A stretch of DNA of 58,215 nucleotides. Origin: an uncultured Candidatus Saccharibacteria bacterium. GTDB taxonomy: Bacteria; Patescibacteriota; Saccharimonadia; Saccharimonadales; UBA4665. The stretch lies in assembly GCA_964477925.1 (NCBI GenBank), contig CAYZFT010000001.1:1-58215 (forward strand), in the 5' to 3' direction. A program made the translations under genes and the position numbers. Shown one piece after another: positions 5,676 to 53,305 of this stretch (position 1 is its first letter; every line of letters starts with the position of its first letter). Below the pieces are notes generated by a model. It did not search any database, was not told the origin of the DNA, and worked only from the letters and a program-made list of their open reading frames with translations.

Positions 5676-8600
5676 GTGCAGAACGAACATATTTTGACGG
5701 GATTGAACCCAGAACAGCGGCGGGCGGTCGAGACGACTGAAGGGCCATTGCTGATTCAGGCTGGGGCGGGCAGTGGCAAGACAAAAACACTGACGCATCG
5801 CATCGCCTACCTCATCCAAACAAGTCAGGCAACACCATATAGCATTCTTGCAGTAACTTTCACCAACAAAGCTGCCCGCGAGATGCGTGAGCGCGTCGCG
5901 GCACTACTCGGTCAGGCGGCGGACAATCGGGGTTTTATGCCCTACATGGGTACGTTCCACTCCATTTGCGTGCGGTTGCTCCGCATGGACGGCGAGCATA
6001 TTGGCATACCGCGCAGTTTTGTGATATTTGACGAGTCAGACCGTCAGGCAGCTGTGAAGCGCATTAGCAGAGAACTGCATATCGACGACAAGGCATTCCC
6101 CGCGCGTATCATCGCTAGCCTCATTAGCAGTGCCAAGAACGACCTCATCGACCCGGCTGAGTATGCTGAGCGTGCCGGCTCACCCGCAGAGCAAGTCACG
6201 GCGCAGGTCTATCCGCGCTACCAAAAAGCATTACATGAGGCCAAGGCGCTCGATTTTGACGACCTCATTGGCCGGACTGTTGAATTACTTACAGGTAATA
6301 AAGTAGTCCGTGACAAGTGGCGGCAGCAATTTAGCCACATCATGATTGACGAATACCAAGATACTAACGCTGCTCAGTACAAACTGGTGCAGCTATTGAT
6401 TGGTTCGCACAAAAACATTGCAGTTGTTGGTGATGATTGGCAGTGTCTCCCTAAGGGAGTATTAGTTAAAACACCAAAAGGCCAAGTGGCTATTGAGGAC
6501 ATAGCACAGGGTGATGCTGTAATGGCAGCCAGTGGTTATGGTCATACACATGAGGCACGGGTCTCGAGCCGAAAGGAATTTGATTATGACGGGGAGCTTA
6601 TTAGGCTTACGACTGCGAGTGGTATTGTAACCCGCGCCACCCCCAACCACCTCCTTTTTGGCCGTTTTGAAAGCACTGACAGGTACCTTGTCTATTTGAT
6701 GTATGCATCAGCAAAAGGCTTTCGCATCGGGATAGCGAAAGGTACGCGGTACGATGGTCGCAAAGATGACATAGGTTTACGGGTGCGTGCGAACCAAGAA
6801 CGTGCCGAGCGCATGTGGGTACTAGAGACGTGTGCTACGAAGCAAGATGCACAGTATTATGAGGCACTCTATGCTTATCGATATGGTATACCAATGATGG
6901 TGTTTCATGCATATGCAAACCGTTCGATGGCTTTAACGCAGAAACATATTGATACGCTCTACGCTGGCATTGATACCGTTACGCGTGCGCATGAGCTTAT
7001 GCGAGAGCTCGGTATCGATTTTGATTATCCGCATTTTTTGCCTCAAGCAACTACTCGTGGCGAAATAAAGCGCGCCAACGTGAACGTCGTACTTTTTGGC
7101 GACAAACGTAAAACGACAAGTAGCCCGTGGTCAGCAAGCCGCCTTTCAGTCAACACTACTGACAGTGGGCTTCTTGAAACATTTCGTGCCGCAGGATATA
7201 GCGTGCGGACGGCTAGGGCAGGCACATGGCGCGTGGAGTTGCATAATCTTGACTATGGCACGATTGAAGCGGCGCTTGAAGTGCTTGATGCTCGCAAAAT
7301 AACGGTTAGTCGCTATGCATTTATGACCGACCAAAAATTCATATTTCTTCCAGCTAGCCAATTTCACGTTGGTATGTCGGTGCCAATCGAGCAGGGGGGG
7401 CGTATTATAGGGGACAAAATTGTTAGGGTTGAGCGAGTGGCATATGTTGGCAAAGTGTATGATCTTGATGTCGAGAAAGTACATAATTATCTCGCAGAAG
7501 GCATGGTCGTGCATAATAGCATTTATAGCTGGCGAGGGGCTGATTTTCGCAATATTTTGCGTTTTGAGCGGGATTATCCTGATTGTACTGTTATAAAACT
7601 CGAGCAAAATTACCGCAGCACGCGACACATTCTCGATGCGGCACATGGTGTCGTAGCTCGCAACCAAAATCGCAGCGACAAAAAGTTGTGGACTGAAGCC
7701 GGCGATGGCCGCCCCGTGCAGGTGCGACAGGTCATGACCGAGCGTGCCGAAGCTGAGGCGATTGTGCGTGCTGTCAAAACGGGTGTCGATGCGGACGTGC
7801 GCCGGTTTAAAGACTTTGCCGTACTGTACCGCACCAATGCTCAGAGCCGCGCCGTCGAGGAAACATTTATGCAGTACGGCATTCCCTACCGCGTGGTCGG
7901 CGGCCAGCGTTTTTATGACCGCAAAGAAATCAAAGACCTCATGGCATATCTGCGACTCATCTATCAGCCAGATGACCGGGTCAGTTTTGAGCGAATTGTC
8001 AATGTGCCAACGCGCGGCGTCGGTGCCAAGAGCCTTGAGAATTTCAATGGCTGGGCGGCAGCAAATGGCTTGACCATGGGCGACGCACTCGACCGAGCCA
8101 GTGAATGTGATAGCCTGAAGGGTAAAGCGATGACAGGGCTCGTTGAGCTATCGGCGACTGTGCGTGATTTTCGAGTACAAGCCGAAACGATGCTACCCGA
8201 TGAGCTCATCGAAAAACTTGTCCAAAAAATTGGCTACCTGCAGTTTCTCGAAGACGGTACCGCACAGGGTGAGAGCAAGCAAGAAAACGTTCGTGAGCTG
8301 ATTGGTGTAGCGCAGGCATATCAAGCGGTTGGTTTAAGCGGTTTTCTTGAGGAGGTCGCGCTCGTGACCGACCTCGACAATGCTAATTTTGGTGACAATG
8401 TTGTCACCCTTATGACGCTGCACGCAGCCAAGGGGCTCGAATTCCCGGTTGTCTTTATGATTGGGATGGAAGAAACCATTTTCCCGCATAGCCGCGCACT
8501 CTACGACCAAAGCGAAATGGAAGAAGAACGGCGCCTCTGTTATGTTGGCATGACACGCGCCCGTGAGGAGCTGTACCTGCTTCACGCAGCTGGCCGGTCG

Positions 8601-8945
8601 CTATACGGTGGCTTGCAACATAACATCCCGAGCCGCTTTATTGGCGAGATTGCCGGTGAACACGTTGAGCAACAAACACTAATGCCGAGTTTTGGGCGTG
8701 CAAACATGGGCGAAGCTGATGGCTATGATGACTTTGCACAAGTTTCGCCAGGCGATGATTTTGCAGCGCCTGTCGACAACGAGCCACGCTATGTGCCTGA
8801 TTTTGCCGAAGGTGACGGGGTGAGCCACCAGCTTTTTGGCGAAGGGACGATTGTCGAGCTCAGCGGAGATATTGCTGCCATATATTTTAAAGGGAAGGGG
8901 CTCAAAAAACTGAATGTTGCCTTCGCGCCCCTCAAGAAATTATGA
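5676..8945 (+). CDS. pcrA: ATP-dependent DNA helicase UvrD/PcrA, interrupted by an intein
   Basis: Contains Walker A AGAGSGKT, DEYQDTN, VGDDWQ / SIYSWRGAD (motif III split by the insert), QNYRS, TLHAAKGLEF and YVGMTRA. The exteins total 731 aa. GTG start. Confidence 0.93.
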   Translation: MQNEHILTGLNPEQRRAVETTEGPLLIQAGAGSGKTKTLTHRIAYLIQTSQATPYSILAVTFTNKAAREMRERVAALLGQAADNRGFMPYMGTFHSICVRLLRMDGEHIGIPRSFVIFDESDRQAAVKRISRELHIDDKAFPARIIASLISSAKNDLIDPAEYAERAGSPAEQVTAQVYPRYQKALHEAKALDFDDLIGRTVELLTGNKVVRDKWRQQFSHIMIDEYQDTNAAQYKLVQLLIGSHKNIAVVGDDWQCLPKGVLVKTPKGQVAIEDIAQGDAVMAASGYGHTHEARVSSRKEFDYDGELIRLTTASGIVTRATPNHLLFGRFESTDRYLVYLMYASAKGFRIGIAKGTRYDGRKDDIGLRVRANQERAERMWVLETCATKQDAQYYEALYAYRYGIPMMVFHAYANRSMALTQKHIDTLYAGIDTVTRAHELMRELGIDFDYPHFLPQATTRGEIKRANVNVVLFGDKRKTTSSPWSASRLSVNTTDSGLLETFRAAGYSVRTARAGTWRVELHNLDYGTIEAALEVLDARKITVSRYAFMTDQKFIFLPASQFHVGMSVPIEQGGRIIGDKIVRVERVAYVGKVYDLDVEKVHNYLAEGMVVHNSIYSWRGADFRNILRFERDYPDCTVIKLEQNYRSTRHILDAAHGVVARNQNRSDKKLWTEAGDGRPVQVRQVMTERAEAEAIVRAVKTGVDADVRRFKDFAVLYRTNAQSRAVEETFMQYGIPYRVVGGQRFYDRKEIKDLMAYLRLIYQPDDRVSFERIVNVPTRGVGAKSLENFNGWAAANGLTMGDALDRASECDSLKGKAMTGLVELSATVRDFRVQAETMLPDELIEKLVQKIGYLQFLEDGTAQGESKQENVRELIGVAQAYQAVGLSGFLEEVALVTDLDNANFGDNVVTLMTLHAAKGLEFPVVFMIGMEETIFPHSRALYDQSEMEEERRLCYVGMTRAREELYLLHAAGRSLYGGLQHNIPSRFIGEIAGEHVEQQTLMPSFGRANMGEADGYDDFAQVSPGDDFAAPVDNEPRYVPDFAEGDGVSHQLFGEGTIVELSGDIAAIYFKGKGLKKLNVAFAPLKKL
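6444..7517 (+). mobile_element. intein (358 aa) inserted in helicase motif III
   Basis: Begins with Cys (CLPKGVLVKTPKG). TPNH fits block B. Ends VYDLDVEKVHNYLAEGMVVHN, followed by the +1 Ser of SIYSWRGA. Removal restores VGDDWQSIYSWRGAD in frame. Confidence 0.9.
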
Positions 8946-10809: not shown

Positions 10810-12375
10810 ATGTCGCCCTCGACTCAACAACTTCGAATTTTGCTGCAAGAACAGCTACGCTTGGCCGATGCCCGCGACCGTGCAGCAGTCGAAGCTATAA
10901 GCAGTGGTGATAACTTTATTGATGTACCTGCGACTGGCAGAACCGTCTCGAGTGCCTATGAGCAGCTCAGGAACGCCGCCGATAATGCCGAAGAGCACCT
11001 GCTTTTGCAACGGGCAATCAAACGCTTCTATCGGCTCAACATATTTACCGCCAAACGGGACGCCAAACAGCTTAACATGGAGCTCATATCAGAGCTTGTG
11101 CTTGCTGGCTACCTGCAGAATAACACGGTGAGCAAACAAGCCATCGAACGTCTTGATACCATTCTTACGTCATACCTTCAAGCGCTTGAGCGTCTGAATG
11201 CGGGTGTCGGTAAGCGTGAGCATAAGACCGAATGGGTGTTGGCTTGCTTGTCATCTGATATTGAGTCTTTACTCAGACCTCACAATCGACGACAAGCTTT
11301 GACGGCAGTCGCCTATCAGTATTTTTCTTTGGCCATCGACCGCAATCAGTTCGAGCACATGCCTGATACCATTGGTTATGAGCTGTGCCTCTACATCGTT
11401 GCACATCAAGCATTACTCAAGTCTGACATCGATATCGTTCGGGCAGATGTTCGTGTCATGTATGGCATCGACCCAGCAGACACTGAGCGGTTTCTACAAA
11501 TCAATCAGCAGGTTGAACATTATTTTTCCTGTCCACTGACAACGCAGTTACGCCGGCTCGTCAACCGCAACGGCGCCCCCCTGCGTATCCTAAAGTCGAT
11601 GATTACGAGCCGGCCTGACTTGCCGGAGCTGCTTGGCGACCGGTCTGGCTTCATGAATGCCTATCGATATCAGGCAGAGCAAGAATACATGCAGGTTAAC
11701 AAAAAGCTCAATACGGGGTTAGCCAAAAGCGTGGCCTTTGTCTTTATTACCAAAATGATTATTGGGCTTGCTATCGAGATACCCTATGACCTCCTGACCC
11801 GAGGGGTTATTGCCTGGACGCCACTGTTAATTAACTTACTTTTCCCGCCAGTTTACATGGTATTGCTCAGACTCGGTATTAACATGCCGAAGCCTGCCAA
11901 TACCGATAAGCTGCAGCTTCTTATTGATGATATTCTTTATAGCGGTGAAGTCGCGCTACTCCCCGCGCCAGGTCAAAAGAAGATTAAGTCATCAGCACAA
12001 GTTGTGTATGATTTGCTCTTTTCGATACCGGTCGCTATCACCATTGCTGTGCTGTACGCGCTTGAGTTTAACATTGTTCAGATGATAATTTTCTTTGTTT
12101 TCTTCTCGACGGCAAGCTCACTCGGTTTTCGCCTGCGCAGCATGGTTACCGACCTGGAGGTCAGTCATCGCAGTACTGGTTTATTTGCCTCGTTGCGCGA
12201 TTTTCTGTACCTTCCGTTTATCGTCTTTGGGCAATGGATTAGCGCAGAATATAAGCGGTTCAACATTGTTGGGCGTATGCTTGACATCATTATCGAGCTA
12301 CCACTCAAAACGTTCTTTCGCCTGGCTCGGCAGTGGATGCGCTTTCTCGATGAGCAACACGAGCAGTTGTACTAA
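10810..12375 (+). CDS. hypothetical multi-pass membrane protein
   Basis: 521 aa. Helical soluble N-terminal half and 4-5 TM helices in the C-terminal half. TGgTATAAT (-10 at 10796-10801) lies 8 nt before the ATG. Confidence 0.6.
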   Translation: MSPSTQQLRILLQEQLRLADARDRAAVEAISSGDNFIDVPATGRTVSSAYEQLRNAADNAEEHLLLQRAIKRFYRLNIFTAKRDAKQLNMELISELVLAGYLQNNTVSKQAIERLDTILTSYLQALERLNAGVGKREHKTEWVLACLSSDIESLLRPHNRRQALTAVAYQYFSLAIDRNQFEHMPDTIGYELCLYIVAHQALLKSDIDIVRADVRVMYGIDPADTERFLQINQQVEHYFSCPLTTQLRRLVNRNGAPLRILKSMITSRPDLPELLGDRSGFMNAYRYQAEQEYMQVNKKLNTGLAKSVAFVFITKMIIGLAIEIPYDLLTRGVIAWTPLLINLLFPPVYMVLLRLGINMPKPANTDKLQLLIDDILYSGEVALLPAPGQKKIKSSAQVVYDLLFSIPVAITIAVLYALEFNIVQMIIFFVFFSTASSLGFRLRSMVTDLEVSHRSTGLFASLRDFLYLPFIVFGQWISAEYKRFNIVGRMLDIIIELPLKTFFRLARQWMRFLDEQHEQLY

Positions 12376-22176: not shown

Positions 22177-25164
22177 ATGAGACGGTACAACCCCAAAGAA
22201 ATTGAGCCCAAGTGGCAGCTTGCATGGGATGAGGCGCAGGTTTACAAAGCAGACCTCAAGAGCGACAAGCCCAAATACATCGCCATGAGTATGTTTAACT
22301 ACCCAAGTGGTGCGGGCATACACATTGGACACGCCATGAATTACACCATCAGTGATGTCATGGCACGTTTCAAGCGACAGCAGGGCTACGAGAGTTACCA
22401 TCCGGTTGGCTGGGATGCCTTCGGCTTGCCCGCAGAAAACTTTGCAATCAAAACTGGTGTATCGCCGCAGGCTAGCATGGCCACAATTATTCCAAGCTAC
22501 CACACGCAGTACAAAGCCATGGGCTGGAGCAACGACTGGAGCAAAGAAATCGCCACACACGAGCCCATTTACTACAAATGGACGCAATGGATTTTTGCCG
22601 AAATGTTTAAGCGGGGTATGGCCTACCAAGATGCTCGCCAACAGTGGTGGTGCGAAAAGTGCCAAACGGTGCTCGCCAACGAGCAAGTGATTGACGGCAA
22701 ATGCTGGCGGCATGATGCGGCCGACGACGCTGAAGTCAAGAAAAAAGAAGTCAAACAGTGGTTTTTCAAAGTTACCGACTACGCCGAGGAAATGCTGGAG
22801 GCTACCGATGACCTCGACTGGTCAGAAGTGGTCAAAACCGCGCAAAAAAACTGGATCGGCAAATCCCAAGGCGCCGAAGTCACATTCGCCCTTGCAGACG
22901 ACGAGTCTCGAGTTGCGAGTCTCGAGCCTCGCGACTCGATTACGGTGTTTACGACCCGACCCGATACGCTTTACGGCGCAACGTTTATGGTGCTTGCTCC
23001 CGAGCACGAGCTGGTGGCTCAGATTACGACCGCCACACAGCGGGCATCGGTCGAGGCTTACATTGCTAGTGCGGTCAAAAAGTCAGAAGTCGAGCGCCAA
23101 GAAAACAAGGTCAAAACGGGTGTTTTCACCGGTGCGTTCGCAATCAACCCTGTAAACGGGCTGAAAATACCCATTTGGATTGCCGACTATGTCCTCACCG
23201 GCTACGGCACGGGCGCAATCATGGCCGTCCCAGCCCACGACGAGCGTGACAACGAATTTGCCAAGAAGTTCGATTTGCCGATTCGGCAGGTCATTATGCA
23301 GTGCGAAGAAGATTCAACCAACCCGACTCAGAAGGGCTTCAAAGAAGTCGTTCGTGATACGGTCATAGCACACCTTCGGAATCAGCAAAATGGCAAATTT
23401 GCATTGCTAAAATGGCATGGCACACTCGAGGGCACAACCACGGCCATTATGGGCGGGATTGAAAGCGGGCAGACAGCAGAGCAGGCCGCAGCGACAGAAA
23501 TACTCGAGGAAGCGGGTCTTCGCGGTGTCCGGTTTGTCAAGAAACTTCGTTGGCTCAGTGGGGCGCGTTACTGCGCATCCCATAAACAAGAAAACAGAAA
23601 GTCAATCGCGCATACATTATTAGCAGAGATTGATACTGTTAATGACCAACTAGAGATTGACGAGAAAGAAAAACAAACCCACACGCTGATATGGGTTGAT
23701 GAAAATGAAGTTATTGAGAGCTTGACGCCCGACCACCAAAAATTTGTCTGGAAGCAGCTACAAGATGAAACAATAGTTACCGAAGAAGGTGAATTAGTTA
23801 ACTCAGCAGAGTACACGGGTTTGTCTAGTGCTGACGCAAGGGAAAAGATTATTAAAGATCTCGAAGCGAAGGGGCTTGCGAGATTCGTTACGAACTTCCG
23901 CATACGAGACTGGAGTGTGAGCAGGCAACGCTACTGGGGTGCGCCTATTCCAATCATTAACTGCCCGGAGCACGGTGCAGTTTTGGACGAGAAGTTGCCG
24001 GTGCTTTTGCCCGAGCTCGAAGATTTCCAGCCGAGTGGCGATGGTCGCAGCGCACTCGCACGCGCAACTGACTGGCTGAACGTGCCGTGTCCCCTGTGTG
24101 GTAAGCCTGCCGAGCGCGAGACAGACACGCTCGATACTTACATTTGTAGCAGCTGGTATATGCTGCGCTATTTTGACCCCGCCAATGAAGACGCCATCTT
24201 TGACACGACAGTCGCCAACAAATGGATGCCAATCGACTTTTACAACGGCGGTGACCACGCGACGGCACATATGATTTATGCACGGTTTATGACACGCTTT
24301 TTCCATCATATTGGCCTGCTCGAGAGCCCAGAGCCATTCAAACGCTTCTTGTTTAATGGCAAGGTTACGGCCAGCGACGGCACGATGTTTAGCAAAAGCA
24401 AGGGTAACGGCGTCGACCCGCTCGAAATCATCGCACAGGGCTACGGGGCCGATGCACTGCGTACCTACCTCATGTTTGCCGCTCCACTAGACCTCTGGAT
24501 GCGTTGGGACCCACAAGGTGTGCCCGGCACCTACCGCTTTCTCAACCGTGTCTGGAACCTCGTACAAGAGTTCGTCGACATTCGTCATTCCCGTGAAAAT
24601 GGGAATCCAGTAAAAAATATGTCGCTTGGCGACGAAAATAACTGGATCTCCGATCAGGTCGGAGATGACGGTGGCGTGAAAATTTTACGCGTCATCCACC
24701 CTGTCATCAAAAAAGTCACTGCAGACCTTGAGGTGCAAAAGTATAACACCGCTATCGCGACAATGATGAAGTGTGTCAATGACCTCTACGAGCTCAAAGC
24801 CAAAGACTTATACAATAACCGCGCAAGCTGGCAGTTCGCCCTCGAAAGCCTTGTGGCGCTTGTGGCACCATTTGCACCGCACATCGCCGATGAACTGTGG
24901 CGTGACCTCGGTCGTGGCACAAGTGTCCAGCGTGAAAGTTGGCCGATTTTCGACGAGGTCTATTGTGTCGCCGACACGGTGACACTCGCCGTGCAGGTCA
25001 ATGGCAAACTACGAGGCACGGTGACCGTGGCAGCCGATGCCGACGAAGCCACATCGGTCGATGCAGCCAAAGCTGACGAAAAAGTCGCGAGCTACCTCGC
25101 CGAAGGCACCATCCTCAAAACTATCTACGTCAAAAACAAGCTCATAAGCTTTGTTGTACGCTAG
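22177..25164 (+). CDS. leuS: leucine--tRNA ligase, with extra inserted segments
   Basis: Contains the HIGH motif (GIHIGHAMNY), TTRPDTLYGATF, AVPAHDERDNEFAKKF, RDWSVSRQRYWGAPIP and a KMSKS-like FSKSKGNG. At 995 aa it is longer than typical bacterial LeuRS. TGgTATAAT (22163-22168) lies 8 nt before the ATG. Confidence 0.95.
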   Translation: MRRYNPKEIEPKWQLAWDEAQVYKADLKSDKPKYIAMSMFNYPSGAGIHIGHAMNYTISDVMARFKRQQGYESYHPVGWDAFGLPAENFAIKTGVSPQASMATIIPSYHTQYKAMGWSNDWSKEIATHEPIYYKWTQWIFAEMFKRGMAYQDARQQWWCEKCQTVLANEQVIDGKCWRHDAADDAEVKKKEVKQWFFKVTDYAEEMLEATDDLDWSEVVKTAQKNWIGKSQGAEVTFALADDESRVASLEPRDSITVFTTRPDTLYGATFMVLAPEHELVAQITTATQRASVEAYIASAVKKSEVERQENKVKTGVFTGAFAINPVNGLKIPIWIADYVLTGYGTGAIMAVPAHDERDNEFAKKFDLPIRQVIMQCEEDSTNPTQKGFKEVVRDTVIAHLRNQQNGKFALLKWHGTLEGTTTAIMGGIESGQTAEQAAATEILEEAGLRGVRFVKKLRWLSGARYCASHKQENRKSIAHTLLAEIDTVNDQLEIDEKEKQTHTLIWVDENEVIESLTPDHQKFVWKQLQDETIVTEEGELVNSAEYTGLSSADAREKIIKDLEAKGLARFVTNFRIRDWSVSRQRYWGAPIPIINCPEHGAVLDEKLPVLLPELEDFQPSGDGRSALARATDWLNVPCPLCGKPAERETDTLDTYICSSWYMLRYFDPANEDAIFDTTVANKWMPIDFYNGGDHATAHMIYARFMTRFFHHIGLLESPEPFKRFLFNGKVTASDGTMFSKSKGNGVDPLEIIAQGYGADALRTYLMFAAPLDLWMRWDPQGVPGTYRFLNRVWNLVQEFVDIRHSRENGNPVKNMSLGDENNWISDQVGDDGGVKILRVIHPVIKKVTADLEVQKYNTAIATMMKCVNDLYELKAKDLYNNRASWQFALESLVALVAPFAPHIADELWRDLGRGTSVQRESWPIFDEVYCVADTVTLAVQVNGKLRGTVTVAADADEATSVDAAKADEKVASYLAEGTILKTIYVKNKLISFVVR
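23304..23788 (+). other. Nudix-like domain inserted in LeuRS, bounded by an 8-bp direct repeat
   Basis: KWHGTLEGTTTAIMGGIESGQTAEQAAATEILEEAGL fits G-x5-E-x7-REUxEExGU with E to Q and R to T substitutions. cgaagaag occurs at 23304-23311 and 23781-23788, 477 nt (159 codons) apart. Confidence 0.7.
24581..24677 (+). repeat. in-frame palindromic repeat element (three hairpins) inside leuS
   Basis: attccc-gtgaaaat-gggaat at 24587-24606, gtcgc-ttg-gcgac at 24621-24633, and atctccga-tcagg-tcggagat at 24646-24666. Related to pheT 51146-51203. Confidence 0.75.
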
Positions 25165-43892: not shown

Positions 43893-44390
43893 TTAGCGGT
43901 AGTTGGTGAAGCTGAGGGGGAAGTCGAGGTCATCTTTGGCTTTGAGGAGTTGCATGACTGATTGTAGGTCGTCTTTGCTGCTGCTCATGACGCGGACAGC
44001 ATCACCCTGAATTTGTGGTTTGACCTTGGGGTATGACTCGCGGATGAGCTTGGTGAGCACCTTGGCTTTGTCTTGGTCGAGGCCTGCCTTGAAAACAACT
44101 TCTTTGGTGGTTTTAAGGTTTGACTCGACGAGGTCTTTGCTGGTGTCGAGCACTTTTTGGCTGATGCCACGGGCGCTCAACTTTTTGCGCACGATGTCGA
44201 GAATGGCATCAATTTGCCATTCGCCGTTGCCAATCACCTTAAAGCCTTTTTTGTCGTCGAGCCATTCTAGCTCGGCTGGTGTGCCCTTAAAGTCATAGCG
44301 ACTTGCCATTTCGCGCAAAACTTGGTCGTAGACGTTATTCATCTCGGCCTTGTCATATTCACTGACAATATCAAAACTAAAATTTGCCAT
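43893..44390 (-). CDS. yajQ: YajQ-family nucleotide-binding protein (UPF0234)
   Basis: FSFDIVSEYDKAEMNNVYDQVLREMASRYDFKGT. TGcTATACT lies 6 nt before the ATG on the minus strand. Confidence 0.88.
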   Translation of the reverse strand: MANFSFDIVSEYDKAEMNNVYDQVLREMASRYDFKGTPAELEWLDDKKGFKVIGNGEWQIDAILDIVRKKLSARGISQKVLDTSKDLVESNLKTTKEVVFKAGLDQDKAKVLTKLIRESYPKVKPQIQGDAVRVMSSSKDDLQSVMQLLKAKDDLDFPLSFTNYR

Positions 44391-44549
44391 ATAGTTAGTA
44401 TAGCACCACGCTATGACAACTGCCGCAAGCGCGGGTTACCATGAGGCTTTCGAAAGCCGTAACACTTCGCGGTGATAACAATAAATGAGTCGCGTATTGC
44501 TATCATGGTCTTGTCCTCGTAGTATAAGAGTAAAACGTGAGGAGAACGT

Positions 44550-50308: not shown

Positions 50309-50618
50309 GCATATTTTCGACAAGGCAAAATGGCAGTCTTTGACATTTTTTGAGCAGATGGGCAATATTGGTTCTGAAGTCGGTCGTGCGTTTAGCGCGC
50401 AGCGACGTGGTGATGAAGCGTCATCACGAGCGGCATTTCACCGAGGTTTGGATCTTATCGACGCGACTGCTGAGCAGCTCGCACGGCAGCAATCACCGCG
50501 GCTGAAAGAAGTCCTGAGAGCCCGTGAGATTTTTGCAACAAATGTGATGGCAAAAAATGATGATGGACTCGAGATATATTTTATGGAATTTGCAATCGCC
50601 GCAAGGAGCAACGGATGA
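50301..50618 (+). CDS. hypothetical helical protein
   Basis: 105 aa from ATG 50301, with an ATGAGTGA overlap with the upstream stop. The stop overlaps the pheT start. Confidence 0.5.
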   Translation: MSEHIFDKAKWQSLTFFEQMGNIGSEVGRAFSAQRRGDEASSRAAFHRGLDLIDATAEQLARQQSPRLKEVLRAREIFATNVMAKNDDGLEIYFMEFAIAARSNG

Positions 50619-53305
50619 AAATAAGCCTTAATACCATCAAACAATTTACCGATATTGACGTACCGGTCGATGAGTTGGTCAAAAAAATCAACGAGCAGCT
50701 CGGTGGGGTAGAGGAGGTCGTTGACCTTGGCACAAAGTACAAAGACGTTGTTATCGTCAGAGTTGTCGAGTGCGATAAGCACCCCAATGCCGACAAACTC
50801 AGCGTCTGTCTGGTTGACGACGGCGGTGTGGTGGCCGATGTGCCGCGCGACGCGAACGGTCTAGTGCAAGTTGTCTGTGGCGCCCCAAATGTGCGCGCCG
50901 GCATGGTTGCCGCATGGTTGCCGCCAGGCAGTACGGTGCCAGCAAGTTTTGACGACAAAGAGCCGTTTGTGCTGAGTGGCCGCGAACTGCGTGGTATCGT
51001 CAGTCAGGGTATGCTTGCCGCACCCGATGAGTTGGCAATTGGCACCGACCACAACGGGATACTTGAAATCACCGAAGCCGACCTATCACCACTATCGTCA
51101 TCCTCGCGATTCGCTGTACAGCGAAGGGGATCTAGTAATCAAGGTGTCGCCGACGGCGACGTAGACAACTGGATTCCCAATCGAGTTGGGAATGACGGGG
51201 CGGTAGCTGGGGATGATGAGACCGCAGCTGGGGGTGACGAGACTTCAGGCGGCGGCTTGGTCCCAGGCGCAAGCTTTGCGAAGCTGTTTGGGCTTGACGA
51301 TACCATTATCGACATCGAAAACAAGATGTTTACGCACCGGCCAGACTGCTTTGGGCAGCTTGGCGTAGCACGGGAGATATCGGCGATTTTGAAGGGGTTA
51401 CCTGCCGATTCTACTGACGTTGATACGCGGTTTGTAAACCCCGATTGGTACTGGCAAAAACCGTCTTTTGCAACAGGCGAAGGTCTTGGGTTGACGGTTT
51501 TCAATGACGTTCCAGACAAATCACCGCGCTTTATGGCGGTGGCGATGAAAAATGTTGAGGTCAAACCAAGCCCGCTGTGGCTACAGATTGAGCTCGTTCG
51601 TCTCGGGAGCAAATCAATCAACAATGTTGTTGATATAACGAACTATATGATGCTGCTTACAGCACAACCGTCACATGCGTACGATTATGACAAGCTGCGC
51701 GGTGCAACACTCGGTGTTCGCATGGCGACAAAAGGCGAAAAGGCAACATTCCTCAACGGCAAGTCGTACGAGCTTGCAGAAGATGATGTTGTTATCGCCG
51801 ATAGCGAAGGGGTCATTGGTTTGGCCGGCATCATTGGTGGAGGCAACAGTGAGGTGTCGCTCGATACCAAAAACATCGTTCTCGAAGTGGCCAATTTTGA
51901 TATGTACACGCTACGCAAAAGTAGCATGCGACACGGCATATTCACCGACGCGCTGACGCGTTTTAGCAAAGGTCAGTCGCAGCTTCAAAATGACCGCGTT
52001 CTTGCTCGTATCATGGAAATGATGGGTGAGTATGCCGGGGCAAACCAAGCGAGCAACGTGCTTGATGAGCCAGATAGCTTCGGCCAGCTCGAAGAAGTGT
52101 CAGTGCATGGTGAGATTACAATCAGTGCCATTTTTATTAATTCGCGGCTCGGTTTGGGCCTTGAGTTATGGCAGATTGGTGGGTTACTTCGGCGGGCCAA
52201 TTTTGCATCATACCCCGCGGAGAACGATAAAAATACTCTCATAATCACTGCGCCGTTTTGGCGAACGGATATTGAGCTCCCCGAAGACATCGTCGAGGAA
52301 GTCGGCCGGCTGTATGGTTTTGACAAATTACCACGTGAGCTACCGCTGCGTAGCATTAAGCCAGCGCCCAAAAACGCACGTATCGAGATGAAACGTCGCG
52401 TACGCCATGCACTCGCACGTGCTGGCGCTAATGAAGTGCTCACCTACAGCTTTGTGCACGAGAATGTGCTCAAGAAGGCCGAGCAAGACCCGGCGCAGGC
52501 ATTCAAACTTGGCAATGCGCTTAGCCCCGACCTGCAGTACTACCGCCTCAGTGTACTCCCAAGCCTGCTCGACAAAGTCCATGGCAATATTAAGGCTGGC
52601 CATGACGAGTTCGTGCTGTTTGAGTTTGGCAAAGCACATCGTAAGGGTGACAATGACGACGAAGGCCTGCCACGCGAGTACGAGCGGCTTGCCGCCGTCT
52701 ACGCCGCCAAGAAATCAGACAAAACACCCTATTTTATGGCTCGCCGTTACGTCGAATCGGTCGCCCCAGATGTTGAGTTTGTGCCACTTGCAGGCTTCGA
52801 CATAAGCCAATATGCCATTTTCGAGCAGCTTGCCAAGCCGTTCGACCCACAGCGCTCAGCCGTGCTCATGAACGGCGAAAAATTCGTTGGTGTTGTTGGC
52901 GAGTTCCGCCTAAACGTGCGAAATGCGTTTAAACTGCCCGAGAGCTCAGCCGGTTTTGAACTGTTCCGGTCATATTTACTCGGCTTACAGCCAAAACCAT
53001 ATACGCCGCTCAGCCGTTTTCCGAGCGTGACACAAGACATCAGCTTGCGTGTTGTCACTACCGTGACTCAGGCGCAGTTATTTGCGATTGCACGTGACGC
53101 TTTCACAAGCATTCAACCCGCCCAAACAACTGCCAAACTTCATACCATTGGCATATACCAACCCGACAGCAACGAAGCAAAAACCGTGACGTTGCGCTTG
53201 CGAATTGCGAGCTACGAGCGCACGCTCACCGATGCCGAAGTAAGTGCCTACCTCGACCACATTGCCGAAGCAACCGCCCACAGCCTTCAAGCCGTCCGCG
53301 TGTAA
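50615..53305 (+). CDS. pheT: phenylalanine--tRNA ligase beta subunit, with an inserted low-complexity segment
   Basis: N-terminal tRNA-binding domain (HPNADKLSVC, VCGAPNV), the B3/4 and B5 regions, and a C-terminal FDX-ACB-like domain (FPSVTQDISLRV). 896 aa. Confidence 0.93.
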   Translation: MKISLNTIKQFTDIDVPVDELVKKINEQLGGVEEVVDLGTKYKDVVIVRVVECDKHPNADKLSVCLVDDGGVVADVPRDANGLVQVVCGAPNVRAGMVAAWLPPGSTVPASFDDKEPFVLSGRELRGIVSQGMLAAPDELAIGTDHNGILEITEADLSPLSSSSRFAVQRRGSSNQGVADGDVDNWIPNRVGNDGAVAGDDETAAGGDETSGGGLVPGASFAKLFGLDDTIIDIENKMFTHRPDCFGQLGVAREISAILKGLPADSTDVDTRFVNPDWYWQKPSFATGEGLGLTVFNDVPDKSPRFMAVAMKNVEVKPSPLWLQIELVRLGSKSINNVVDITNYMMLLTAQPSHAYDYDKLRGATLGVRMATKGEKATFLNGKSYELAEDDVVIADSEGVIGLAGIIGGGNSEVSLDTKNIVLEVANFDMYTLRKSSMRHGIFTDALTRFSKGQSQLQNDRVLARIMEMMGEYAGANQASNVLDEPDSFGQLEEVSVHGEITISAIFINSRLGLGLELWQIGGLLRRANFASYPAENDKNTLIITAPFWRTDIELPEDIVEEVGRLYGFDKLPRELPLRSIKPAPKNARIEMKRRVRHALARAGANEVLTYSFVHENVLKKAEQDPAQAFKLGNALSPDLQYYRLSVLPSLLDKVHGNIKAGHDEFVLFEFGKAHRKGDNDDEGLPREYERLAAVYAAKKSDKTPYFMARRYVESVAPDVEFVPLAGFDISQYAIFEQLAKPFDPQRSAVLMNGEKFVGVVGEFRLNVRNAFKLPESSAGFELFRSYLLGLQPKPYTPLSRFPSVTQDISLRVVTTVTQAQLFAIARDAFTSIQPAQTTAKLHTIGIYQPDSNEAKTVTLRLRIASYERTLTDAEVSAYLDHIAEATAHSLQAVRV
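51100..51250 (+). repeat. in-frame palindromic repeat element inside pheT
   Basis: ttcgctgtacagcgaa (16-nt palindrome, 51110-51125). gtcgcc-gac-ggcgac at 51146-51160. attcccaa-tcgag-ttgggaat at 51173-51193. Tandem 21-mers at 51204-51245. Confidence 0.75.

Follow-up and report, generated by a model that had tools for sequence, protein, structure and literature searches.

The closest described relatives of the elements reported here are the CGTC-tagged REPs, surveyed in 2013 (Di Nocera, De Gregorio, Rocco 2013, BMC Genomics 14:522; PMC3733652). Each unit consists of a CGTC tag, a stem of 8-9 bp starting with AT, a loop of 4-5 nt and a CCA tail, and most units occur as inverted pairs with spacers of 20-100 bp, some of which contain a small stem-loop; TGTC and CCTC are known variants of the tag. 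According to the same survey, CGTC repeats also lie inside genes and are read in frame there, tRNA synthetase genes included; CGTC-1 is equivalent to the dRS3 repeat of Neisseria and to the Rickettsia palindromic element (RPE) RPE-6, and CGTC-4 to RPE-4; no dedicated enzyme was named for these repeats, and various transposases were suggested as mobilisers (PMC3733652). The present analysis concerns two pairs of such units that lie in frame within leuS and pheT, the genes of leucyl-tRNA synthetase (LeuRS) and of the beta subunit of phenylalanyl-tRNA synthetase (PheRS), on a 58,215-nt stretch of DNA from an uncultured Candidatus Saccharibacteria bacterium (assembly GCA_964477925.1, contig CAYZFT010000001.1, positions 1 to 58,215), hereafter called the window.

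The cognate nuclease of this repeat family was described only in 2025 (Nat Commun 2025, PMC11893778). Ssn, a GIY-YIG nuclease of about 95 aa, binds the 28-nt NTS, which contains dRS3, solely as single-stranded DNA. It acts on one strand and cuts just upstream of the tag, and the loop sequence is not essential for cleavage. Copies of the motif typically stand on either side of the ssn gene (small GIY-YIG, cd10448), and 71% of ssn homologs have units of the Ssn-related motif (SRM) nearby; the published biochemistry of binding and cleavage covers the Neisseria and Wolbachia homologs only (PMC11893778).

Judged by their sequence, the two window elements can be firmly assigned as CGTC-REP pairs, with a more tentative assignment to the SRM units. 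The family itself and its in-frame habit, tRNA synthetases included, are already described, and the cognate nuclease family is now known; the insertion is genuine but for the most part unremarkable, and what is new is the host group, from which the family had not been reported. The best-supported mechanism, to which a probability of roughly 0.6 is given, is that the pairs would be gene-less derivatives of a hairpin-flanked ssn unit, carried as tolerated passengers in permissive linkers.

A first-pass annotation of the window, made from the letters alone, had placed three perfect hairpins in leuS within 24581-24677 and a collinear copy in pheT. All three leuS hairpins are present exactly at these positions (ATTCCC-N8-GGGAAT at 24587-24606, GTCGC-TTG-GCGAC at 24621-24633 and ATCTCCGA-TCAGG-TCGGAGAT at 24646-24666), and the element stands; its unit structure is longer than noted, with CGTC and the 5' hairpin at the start and GACG at the end. 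The 6-bp arms of the first hairpin are likewise real, and they become an 8-bp stem with a GAAA loop once a G-T pair is counted. The leuS element spans 88 nt (24583-24670) and forms an inverted pair of hairpin units with the tags outward:

leuS, 22177-25164, plus strand: host gene, LeuRS of 995 aa (Pfam).
leuS 5' unit, 24583-24609, plus strand: CGTC tag (24583-86), stem ATTCCCGT/ATGGGAAT (24587-94 and 24599-606) with one G-T pair, GAAA loop (24595-98), CCA tail (24607-09); CGTC-1 or NTS-like form.
leuS spacer, 24610-24642, plus strand: 33 nt with a small hairpin, GTCGC-TTG-GCGAC (24621-33).
leuS 3' unit, 24643-24670, plus strand, mirror orientation: TGG, stem ATCTCCGA/TCGGAGAT, loop TCAGG, GACG tag; CGTC-2-like form.

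The spacer ends and the unit tails are able to pair (CCAGT/ACTGG), and the predicted fold of the whole element is a cloverleaf in which tag pairs with tag and tail with tail; compared with shuffles, its folding reaches z = -5.3 as DNA and -6.0 as RNA. As a side observation, 19 nt past the end of the element, the codons for the conserved LeuRS residues LRVIHP read CGCGTCATCCACC (24689-24701) and resemble a tag with the start of an arm, and the covariance model described below gives a partial match there. Such a mimic could turn the loop into a favoured site of landing or of recombination.

In pheT, the collinear copy is present, with GTCGCC-GAC-GGCGAC at 51146-51160, AACTGG, ATTCCCAA-TCGAG-TTGGGAAT at 51173-51193 and then GACGG. 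Its start does not lie at 51146, where it had been placed, since CGTC and a 5' hairpin put it at 51096; the pair (51096-51197) is followed by two 21-nt repeats that run to 51239:

pheT, 50615-53305, plus strand: host gene, PheRS beta subunit of 896 aa (Pfam).
pheT 5' unit, 51096-51134, plus strand: rearranged; CGTC, stem ATCCTC..GGGGAT with one T-G pair, enlarged loop, CTA tail.
pheT spacer, 51135-51169, plus strand: 35 nt with the hairpin GTCGCC-GAC-GGCGAC (51146-60).
pheT 3' unit, 51170-51197, plus strand: TGG, stem ATTCCCAA/TTGGGAAT, loop TCGAG, GACG tag.
Two further 21-nt repeats, 51198-51239, plus strand: a half-site at the end of each, GGGGATGATG (51209-18) and GGGGGTGACG (51230-39).

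The loop of the pheT 5' unit is 20 nt long, with a perfect 16-nt palindrome, TTCGCTGTACAGCGAA (51110-25), nested inside. This unit aligns to the canonical TGTC-ATCCTCGC-GAAA-GCGAGGAT-CCA of another pheT copy (locus L126), where GAAA stands in that place, which suggests that the palindrome is a secondary insertion or a hairpin-templated duplication; the spacer of L126 has a matching hairpin (GTCGCC-GAA-GGCGAC). The pair and the 21-nt repeats together make 144 nt, which equals the 48-codon difference in length from the closest ortholog. Half-site arrays of this kind, in which tag plus arm (GGGRATGAYG, or ACGTCATTCCC in mirror orientation) recurs beside complete units with a spacing of about 21 nt, roughly two helical turns, are found at window 51198-51239 and at the loci L012, L019, L023, L049, L090 and L111. 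The array in pheT encodes GNDGAVA/GDDETAA/GGDETSG, and the AQNDTA codons of an ortholog free of the insert (L125) resemble one 21-nt half-site repeat.

Window units and CGTC-REPs are alike in the CGTC tag, the AT-stem, a loop of 4 nt in the 5' unit and 5 nt in the 3' unit, the CCA tail and the arrangement in inverted pairs. The tag is present in all four units (CGTC at 24583-86 and 51096-99, GACG at 24667-70 and 51194-97), and a stem of 8-9 bp starting with AT in three of them. The exception is the pheT 5' unit, which has only ATCCTC/GGGGAT and also departs in its loop, the others reading GAAA, TCAGG and TCGAG. The CCA tail is found at 24607-09 and, as its complement TGG, at 24643-45 and 51170-72, with CTA in its place in the pheT 5' unit. 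Both spacers (33 and 35 nt) fall within the published range, each with a hairpin of 5-6 bp. The differences lie in the host, Saccharibacteria (Patescibacteria), outside the five phyla listed in 2013; in the number and location of the pairs, two in 58 kb and both intragenic; in the rearranged pheT 5' unit with its nested palindrome; and in the 21-nt half-site repeats that follow the pheT pair.

The likeness to dRS3 had been put forward as an analogy only, which was too cautious. The leuS 5' unit shares 25 of 28 positions with the NTS consensus CGTCATTCCCGCGMAVGCGGGAATCYRG, contains the dRS3 core ATTCCC-N8-GGGAAT exactly and carries the directional flanks CGTC and CCAG; given that NTS is dRS3 plus its directional flanks, the match places this unit in the family of dRS3. 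Unlike NTS/SRM units, those of the window are not clustered in intergenic mosaics, and there is no ssn in the window. The proposed resemblance to Rickettsia palindromic elements also turns out to be more than an analogy, RPE-6 and RPE-4 being equated with CGTC-1 and CGTC-4 (PMC3733652). In both cases, a palindromic repeat lies in frame within functional, often essential proteins whose loops tolerate it, and the host genome is reduced. The host phylum is another one, however, neither RPE-1 nor the other long RPEs show any relation in sequence, and the link to RPE-4 and RPE-6 runs through the equivalence stated in that survey. The REPIN/RAYT system offers a parallel in its logic, namely a tagged hairpin recognised as single-stranded DNA, an inverted doublet that multiplies, and the derivation of that doublet from the flanks of a single-copy enzyme gene. 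It differs in the tag (GTAG versus CGTC) and in the enzyme (HUH tyrosine transposase versus small GIY-YIG nuclease), and mobilisation is supported for REPINs, whereas for CGTC/SRM units it is only hypothesised.

Within the window, the leuS and pheT elements are 78% alike. Their shared 32-mer, AACTGGAT..ATGACGG, is identical at 24 of 32 positions; six of the eight differences make up three compensated stem pairs, and the other two lie in the loop. The exact pattern AACTGGAT-N17-ATGACGG occurs in the window only at these two sites. A perfect hairpin with a stem of at least 6 bp followed by ATGAC is found at three window sites, every one a unit of these elements; in shuffles, even stems of at least 5 bp yield only 0.8 such sites on average. 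A covariance model of the unit was trained on 34 distinct copies, of which 31 came from unrelated organisms and two from LeuRS relatives, the last being the leuS 3' unit itself; the training set includes L048, identical to the pheT 3' unit over 28 nt. Run on the 58 kb, the model returned exactly four units, that is, the two pairs. The pheT 3' unit scored 47.8 bits (E 2e-13), the leuS 3' unit, a training sequence, 47.4 bits (E 3e-13) and the leuS 5' unit 27.2 bits (E 1.7e-6); the pheT 5' unit scored weakly (10 bits, E 0.9), in the expected place and orientation. A candidate third copy at 44352-44417 (GTCAT...ATGAC, 5-bp hairpins) was rejected: it runs into the conserved N-terminal part of a DUF520/YajQ gene, and the model gives it no score. 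Rfam holds no family for the region, at the gathering threshold or at E up to 10, and a full-text literature search with the encoded peptides (CHPELVSGS, KQVQHD and others) returned nothing relevant.

Further copies exist in other genomes. A scan of one genome per species, with the 3' unit as query, purine/pyrimidine freedom and no pairing required, found it in at least 120 genomic places across many phyla. Among the matches listed, the hosts include Zixibacteria, Sulfuricurvum, Nitrospirales, Bacteroidales, Rhodothermales, Dehalococcoidia and Planctomycetota, many Alpha-, Beta- and Gammaproteobacteria, and the candidate phyla Peribacteria, Berkelbacteria, Paceibacterota and Saccharibacteria; the stem is perfect in 121 of the 134 copies among these matches. 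The stems belong to a few covarying types, such as ATCCCCGA/TCGGGGAT, ATTCCCGA/TCGGGAAT, ATCCCCGG/CCGGGGAT and ATTCCCAA/TTGGGAAT. In 34 distinct sequences, 96% of stem cells are paired, and slid controls collapse. Covariation also persists once these copies are aligned, with double-sided changes far beyond the shuffled control (34 double-changed cells versus 11.5 ± 4.6; none of 500 shuffles reaches the observed number). The first-pass annotation had taken the covariation between leuS and pheT as a sign of selection for structure and not for peptide. This stands for the family, whose palindromic stems covary across phyla. For the two window copies, it needs a caveat: the stem differences between leuS and pheT are mostly those between sequence types of the family and not on-the-spot compensation. 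Over 28 nt, copies in unrelated metagenome-assembled genomes (MAGs; e.g., L048, L119, L123) have exactly the sequence of the pheT 3' unit.

The surroundings of these matches resemble those in the window. An upstream inverted partner of the form GTCATTCCCGCGAAAGCGGGAATCCA accompanies 24% of the matches versus 0.6% of controls, and extra half-sites in the same orientation follow downstream in 17% versus 2.7%, most often about 21 nt off. Most matches (112 of 136) lie outside long open frames, and several of the 24 inside such frames are in spurious high-GC ones; genuine in-frame units occur in a Patescibacteria dnaX, in an Azonexus oxidoreductase of 1172 aa and in a Berkelbacteria membrane protein. 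One Saccharibacteria MAG has its units between genes. In viral contigs, the unit was seen just five times, so that phages do not stand out as carriers. Four wastewater or sludge metagenomes contain the window, and other contigs of similar depth there match the units only. In the source metagenomes, depth is several-fold higher over the units, and a 2598-nt contig of depth 12, for example, holds a pair; the unit-bearing contigs of similar depth are not assignable to the genome of the window. No contig joint that skips the inserts was seen in four public runs, in which contigs cannot prove the absence of such variants. A metagenome scan with a subfamily pattern (spacer hairpin arm plus 3' unit) was discarded, having returned three chance matches only, in RTX-type repeat proteins and other unrelated open reading frames (ORFs).

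The connection to Ssn comes from loci in which the same hairpins enclose a nuclease gene. GIY-YIG genes (Pfam PF01541, E about 1e-16) lie directly inside tags-outward pairs at L010 (Peribacteria), L018 and L083 (twice) and adjoin units at L086 and L113; they were found by a search aimed at that family, other nuclease and transposase families not having been searched for in the fetched loci. At L010, the loop reads GAAA in the left unit and TCAAG in the right one. The window shows the same heterodimer, except that a short spacer stands where L010 has the gene, and the window pairs therefore look like the bracket of a hairpin-ssn-hairpin unit without its gene. Recognition of hairpin single-stranded DNA by Ssn, with a non-essential loop, would also explain why tag and stem pairing are conserved and stem letters and loops variable. 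The Ssn-type GIY-YIG family itself is large (at least 6495 matches) and well conserved across classes, the top matches being 65-78% identical. The gene within the L010 pair (6617-6990) has an in-frame TGA, which makes it a pseudogene or a gene with a recoded stop. Another locus, L064 (5598-6332, Saccharibacteria MAG CAZGPZ01), has a small-cassette-like layout in which an ORF of 146 aa (5788-6228, minus strand) lies between two same-orientation CGTC units; it matches no Pfam or PADLOC family.

In the proposed mechanism, a selfish hairpin-ssn-hairpin unit would give rise to gene-less, REPIN- or MITE-like pairs, and such pairs would have entered leuS and pheT long ago by insertion or by copy-repair at single-stranded DNA. 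They would persist because disordered surface linkers and a stop-free frame tolerate the extra residues, about 30 in LeuRS and 48 in PheT. The inserts would not be needed for enzyme function, given that the closest PheT ortholog lacks one, that most LeuRS orthologs have a short loop at the site and that both inserts are modelled as low-confidence coil.

The predicted structures agree with the earlier expectation that both inserts sit in surface loops. The leuS insert corresponds to residues ~803-832 in the anticodon-binding domain, where a coil joins helix 781-803 to helix 831-852; the counterpart in E. coli LeuRS is a variable linker (residues ~700-722). The pheT insert corresponds to residues ~161-208, a linker after the tRNA-binding OB domain. 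The AlphaFold predicted local distance difference test (pLDDT) is below 50 over residues 809-830 of LeuRS and 162-213 of PheT, so that both are modelled as low-confidence, disordered coil. That a palindromic repeat is carried in frame by two essential aminoacyl-tRNA synthetase genes was borne out, both reading frames being intact. The further claim that both copies are read in the same frame is correct for the 3' halves; the 5' units differ, with CGT CAT TCC (RHS) in leuS versus tCG TCA TCC (SSS) in pheT. Four of the six frames of a single unit are free of stops, as are three of six for the leuS pair, and coding copies elsewhere are read in four different frames. With so many stop-free frames and with 5' units that differ in frame, a shared frame is expected from filtering and is no sign of peptide selection.

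The LeuRS and PheT relatives are Saccharibacteria; the top full-length LeuRS matches are 69-71% identical and the top PheT match 82%. The closest PheT ortholog (P0122, 82% identity) is without the insert, and an 88-nt copy is shared by four LeuRS orthologs. Most Saccharibacteria LeuRS have 7-12 residues at the insert loop, and one subclade has long fillers of several kinds. The window-type filler (RHSxENGNP...NW..QVGDDG) is also found in P0004 and P0022 and, decayed, in P0002. A second type, CHPELVSGS...IPKQVRND, has the same layout with other stems (TGTC-ATCCTGAA-CTTGT-TTCAGGAT) and is unscored by the covariance model at E up to 0.1. A third kind consists of unrelated simple repeats. Observed in this loop were an AACAATC tandem giving NNQQSTINNQQ (P0007; L131, ~12260-12300) and, in relatives, SQESRVKSQE-type stretches and VILSGSEGS..AGFAQDD-type palindromes. 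The leuS insert is absent from P0007, P0024 and P0026-28. The LeuRS loop acts as a general sink for repetitive DNA.

The LeuRS filler states are patchy on a rough neighbour-joining tree. Recent repeated insertion, read from this pattern, was dropped in view of the equal length and flank-like divergence of the four LeuRS copies; together with the shared site, these point to one old leuS insertion with later losses or replacement by the second subfamily. In pheT, a more distant relative (P0151, 61% identity) has, at the codon where the window has its insert, a canonical pair that belongs to the same subfamily, and further relatives carry other variants. The window and P0151 elements are 81% identical and their flanks about 74%, which fits shared ancestry and independent insertion alike.

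Several observations weigh against the derivation from a hairpin-flanked ssn unit or against parts of it. As for membership, the leuS 5' unit departs from NTS at three positions, two of them still able to pair (T-A, G-T), and the 2025 paper allowed a single mismatch. Moreover, the published SRM motif (HGTCWY-N0-2-YYVSBRH-N0-5-WNVSBRG-N0-2-RNCYNB) fits just one of the four units, the leuS 3' unit (24642-24670, minus strand); it also matches one unrelated site (15344-76), the mean in shuffles being 0.33. As for mobility, the four LeuRS copies are all 88 nt long, at the same site and 73-80% identical versus 66-86% for the flanks, and thus look old rather than recently mobile; the 78% likeness between leuS and pheT likewise gives no sign of a recent burst. 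No target-site duplication is recognisable when filled and empty sites are compared. As for the enzyme, no ssn, GIY-YIG, RAYT or other nuclease, transposase or recombinase gene was found in the 58-kb window (tblastn at E up to 1; Pfam on 40 ORFs), and no Saccharibacteria name appears among the 120 Ssn homologs listed, of which few carry names. Transposition or copying by Ssn is so far only a hypothesis of the 2025 paper (PMC11893778). Finally, the stems are kept better than simple decay predicts, which leaves room for a function at the level of the host.

Such a function is the basis of the strongest rival explanation, in which the hairpins have been domesticated, that is, selected within the genes for a role at the DNA or RNA level. 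They might limit how far single-stranded DNA from outside recombines, the role suggested for NTS and SsnA in Neisseria, make translation pause between domains, or serve mRNA stability. In the four LeuRS copies, 88% of stem cells are paired despite 20-27% divergence of the element, and both tags, CGTC and GACG, hardly vary. Two compensated pairs are seen in the spacer hairpin (GTCGC/GCGAC, GCCGC/GCGGC, GTCAC/GTGAC) even as the peptide that it encodes shifts (SLGD, PQSG, SQSD), and five cells are double-changed, a number reached by 8 of 500 shuffles; the folding scores given above point the same way. However, three of the four LeuRS lineages show a decaying 3' unit (2-3 mismatches, 78% of cells paired), close relatives manage without the insert in both genes, the same loops hold unrelated simple repeats in other relatives, and statistics on four sequences are weak. 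Domestication is regarded as unlikely.

A related but more doubtful proposal sees the LeuRS and PheT linker loops of Saccharibacteria as recurrent landing pads, where subfamilies of hairpin pairs would be gained, exchanged and lost and where the hairpins would be actively maintained as functional DNA sites. It builds on the compensatory stem changes, the invariant tags and the phased 21-nt arrays of half-sites. If true, the hairpins of a reduced, episymbiotic genome would be of use to the host or to a resident Ssn-type nuclease and would not be inert relics.

The mover or targeting enzyme might also be one other than Ssn, either a tyrosine transposase of the IS200/RAYT type that acts on hairpins or a recombinase of the Piv/IS110 type for which they are sites of integration, as dRS3 is for filamentous phages in Neisseria. 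The tagged hairpin with inverted doublets as the mobile unit follows the logic of REP and RAYT, dRS3 is reported as a target of a phage recombinase (PMC11893778), and the 2013 survey, without a dedicated enzyme, already looked to various transposases (PMC3733652). Against this stand the small GIY-YIG genes between unit pairs in the fetched loci, within the aim of that search, the proximity of SRM units to most ssn homologs (PMC11893778) and a window devoid of transposases and recombinases. An enzyme of this kind is considered improbable.

Selection for the inserted peptides as a functional protein loop, with the symmetry of the DNA incidental, is very hard to uphold. ENGN and NW..QVGDDG are fairly conserved in the four LeuRS copies, but the DNA unit is mostly intergenic, its coding copies use four frames, the leuS and pheT 5' units themselves differ in frame, and the segment is a disordered coil in the AlphaFold models and absent from most orthologs. 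Least credible of all is chance resemblance or mis-assembly of the metagenome at a repeat: contigs of the same sample do break near repeats and many short contigs share units, but reading frames run through both inserts, contigs of separate runs span them, independent assemblies of relatives show the element at the same codon positions, and the counts expected by chance (exact pattern, hairpin plus ATGAC in shuffles, covariance model) are far below those observed.

With the window pairs, a cross-phylum family of hairpin repeats is extended to Saccharibacteria and other candidate-phyla bacteria, and its repeats are seen to be able to reside for a long time inside essential genes of translation. 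For annotation, the family accounts for odd low-complexity peptides in MAG proteins, such as RHSxENGNP, WIPxQVGNDG and CHPELVSGS. Orthologs with and without inserts provide natural test cases for neutral passengers versus functional single-stranded DNA sites, and for spread by Ssn-type nucleases.

The window as a whole is a series of genes with housekeeping roles, namely pyk, pgk, tpiA, a UvrD-type helicase, ksgA, tmRNA, mur ligases and ddl, as well as leuS, nusB, rnc, trmD, tgt, pheS and pheT. LeuRS has a second insertion of a different nature, a complete NUDIX domain at residues ~389-530 (window 23341-23766), after the editing domain. Its Nudix box reads GGIESGQTAEQAAATEILEEAGL (Pfam E 1.5e-8), and AlphaFold folds the domain confidently. 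Most Saccharibacteria LeuRS relatives share it, the remaining ones having an ASCH domain or nothing at this place; a literature search on the NUDIX insertion found no description of it. Lastly, the UvrD/PcrA-type helicase (window 5676-8945, 1089 aa) has an Intein_splicing match at residues 574-614, between its N- and C-terminal helicase domains, and this region is probably an intein.

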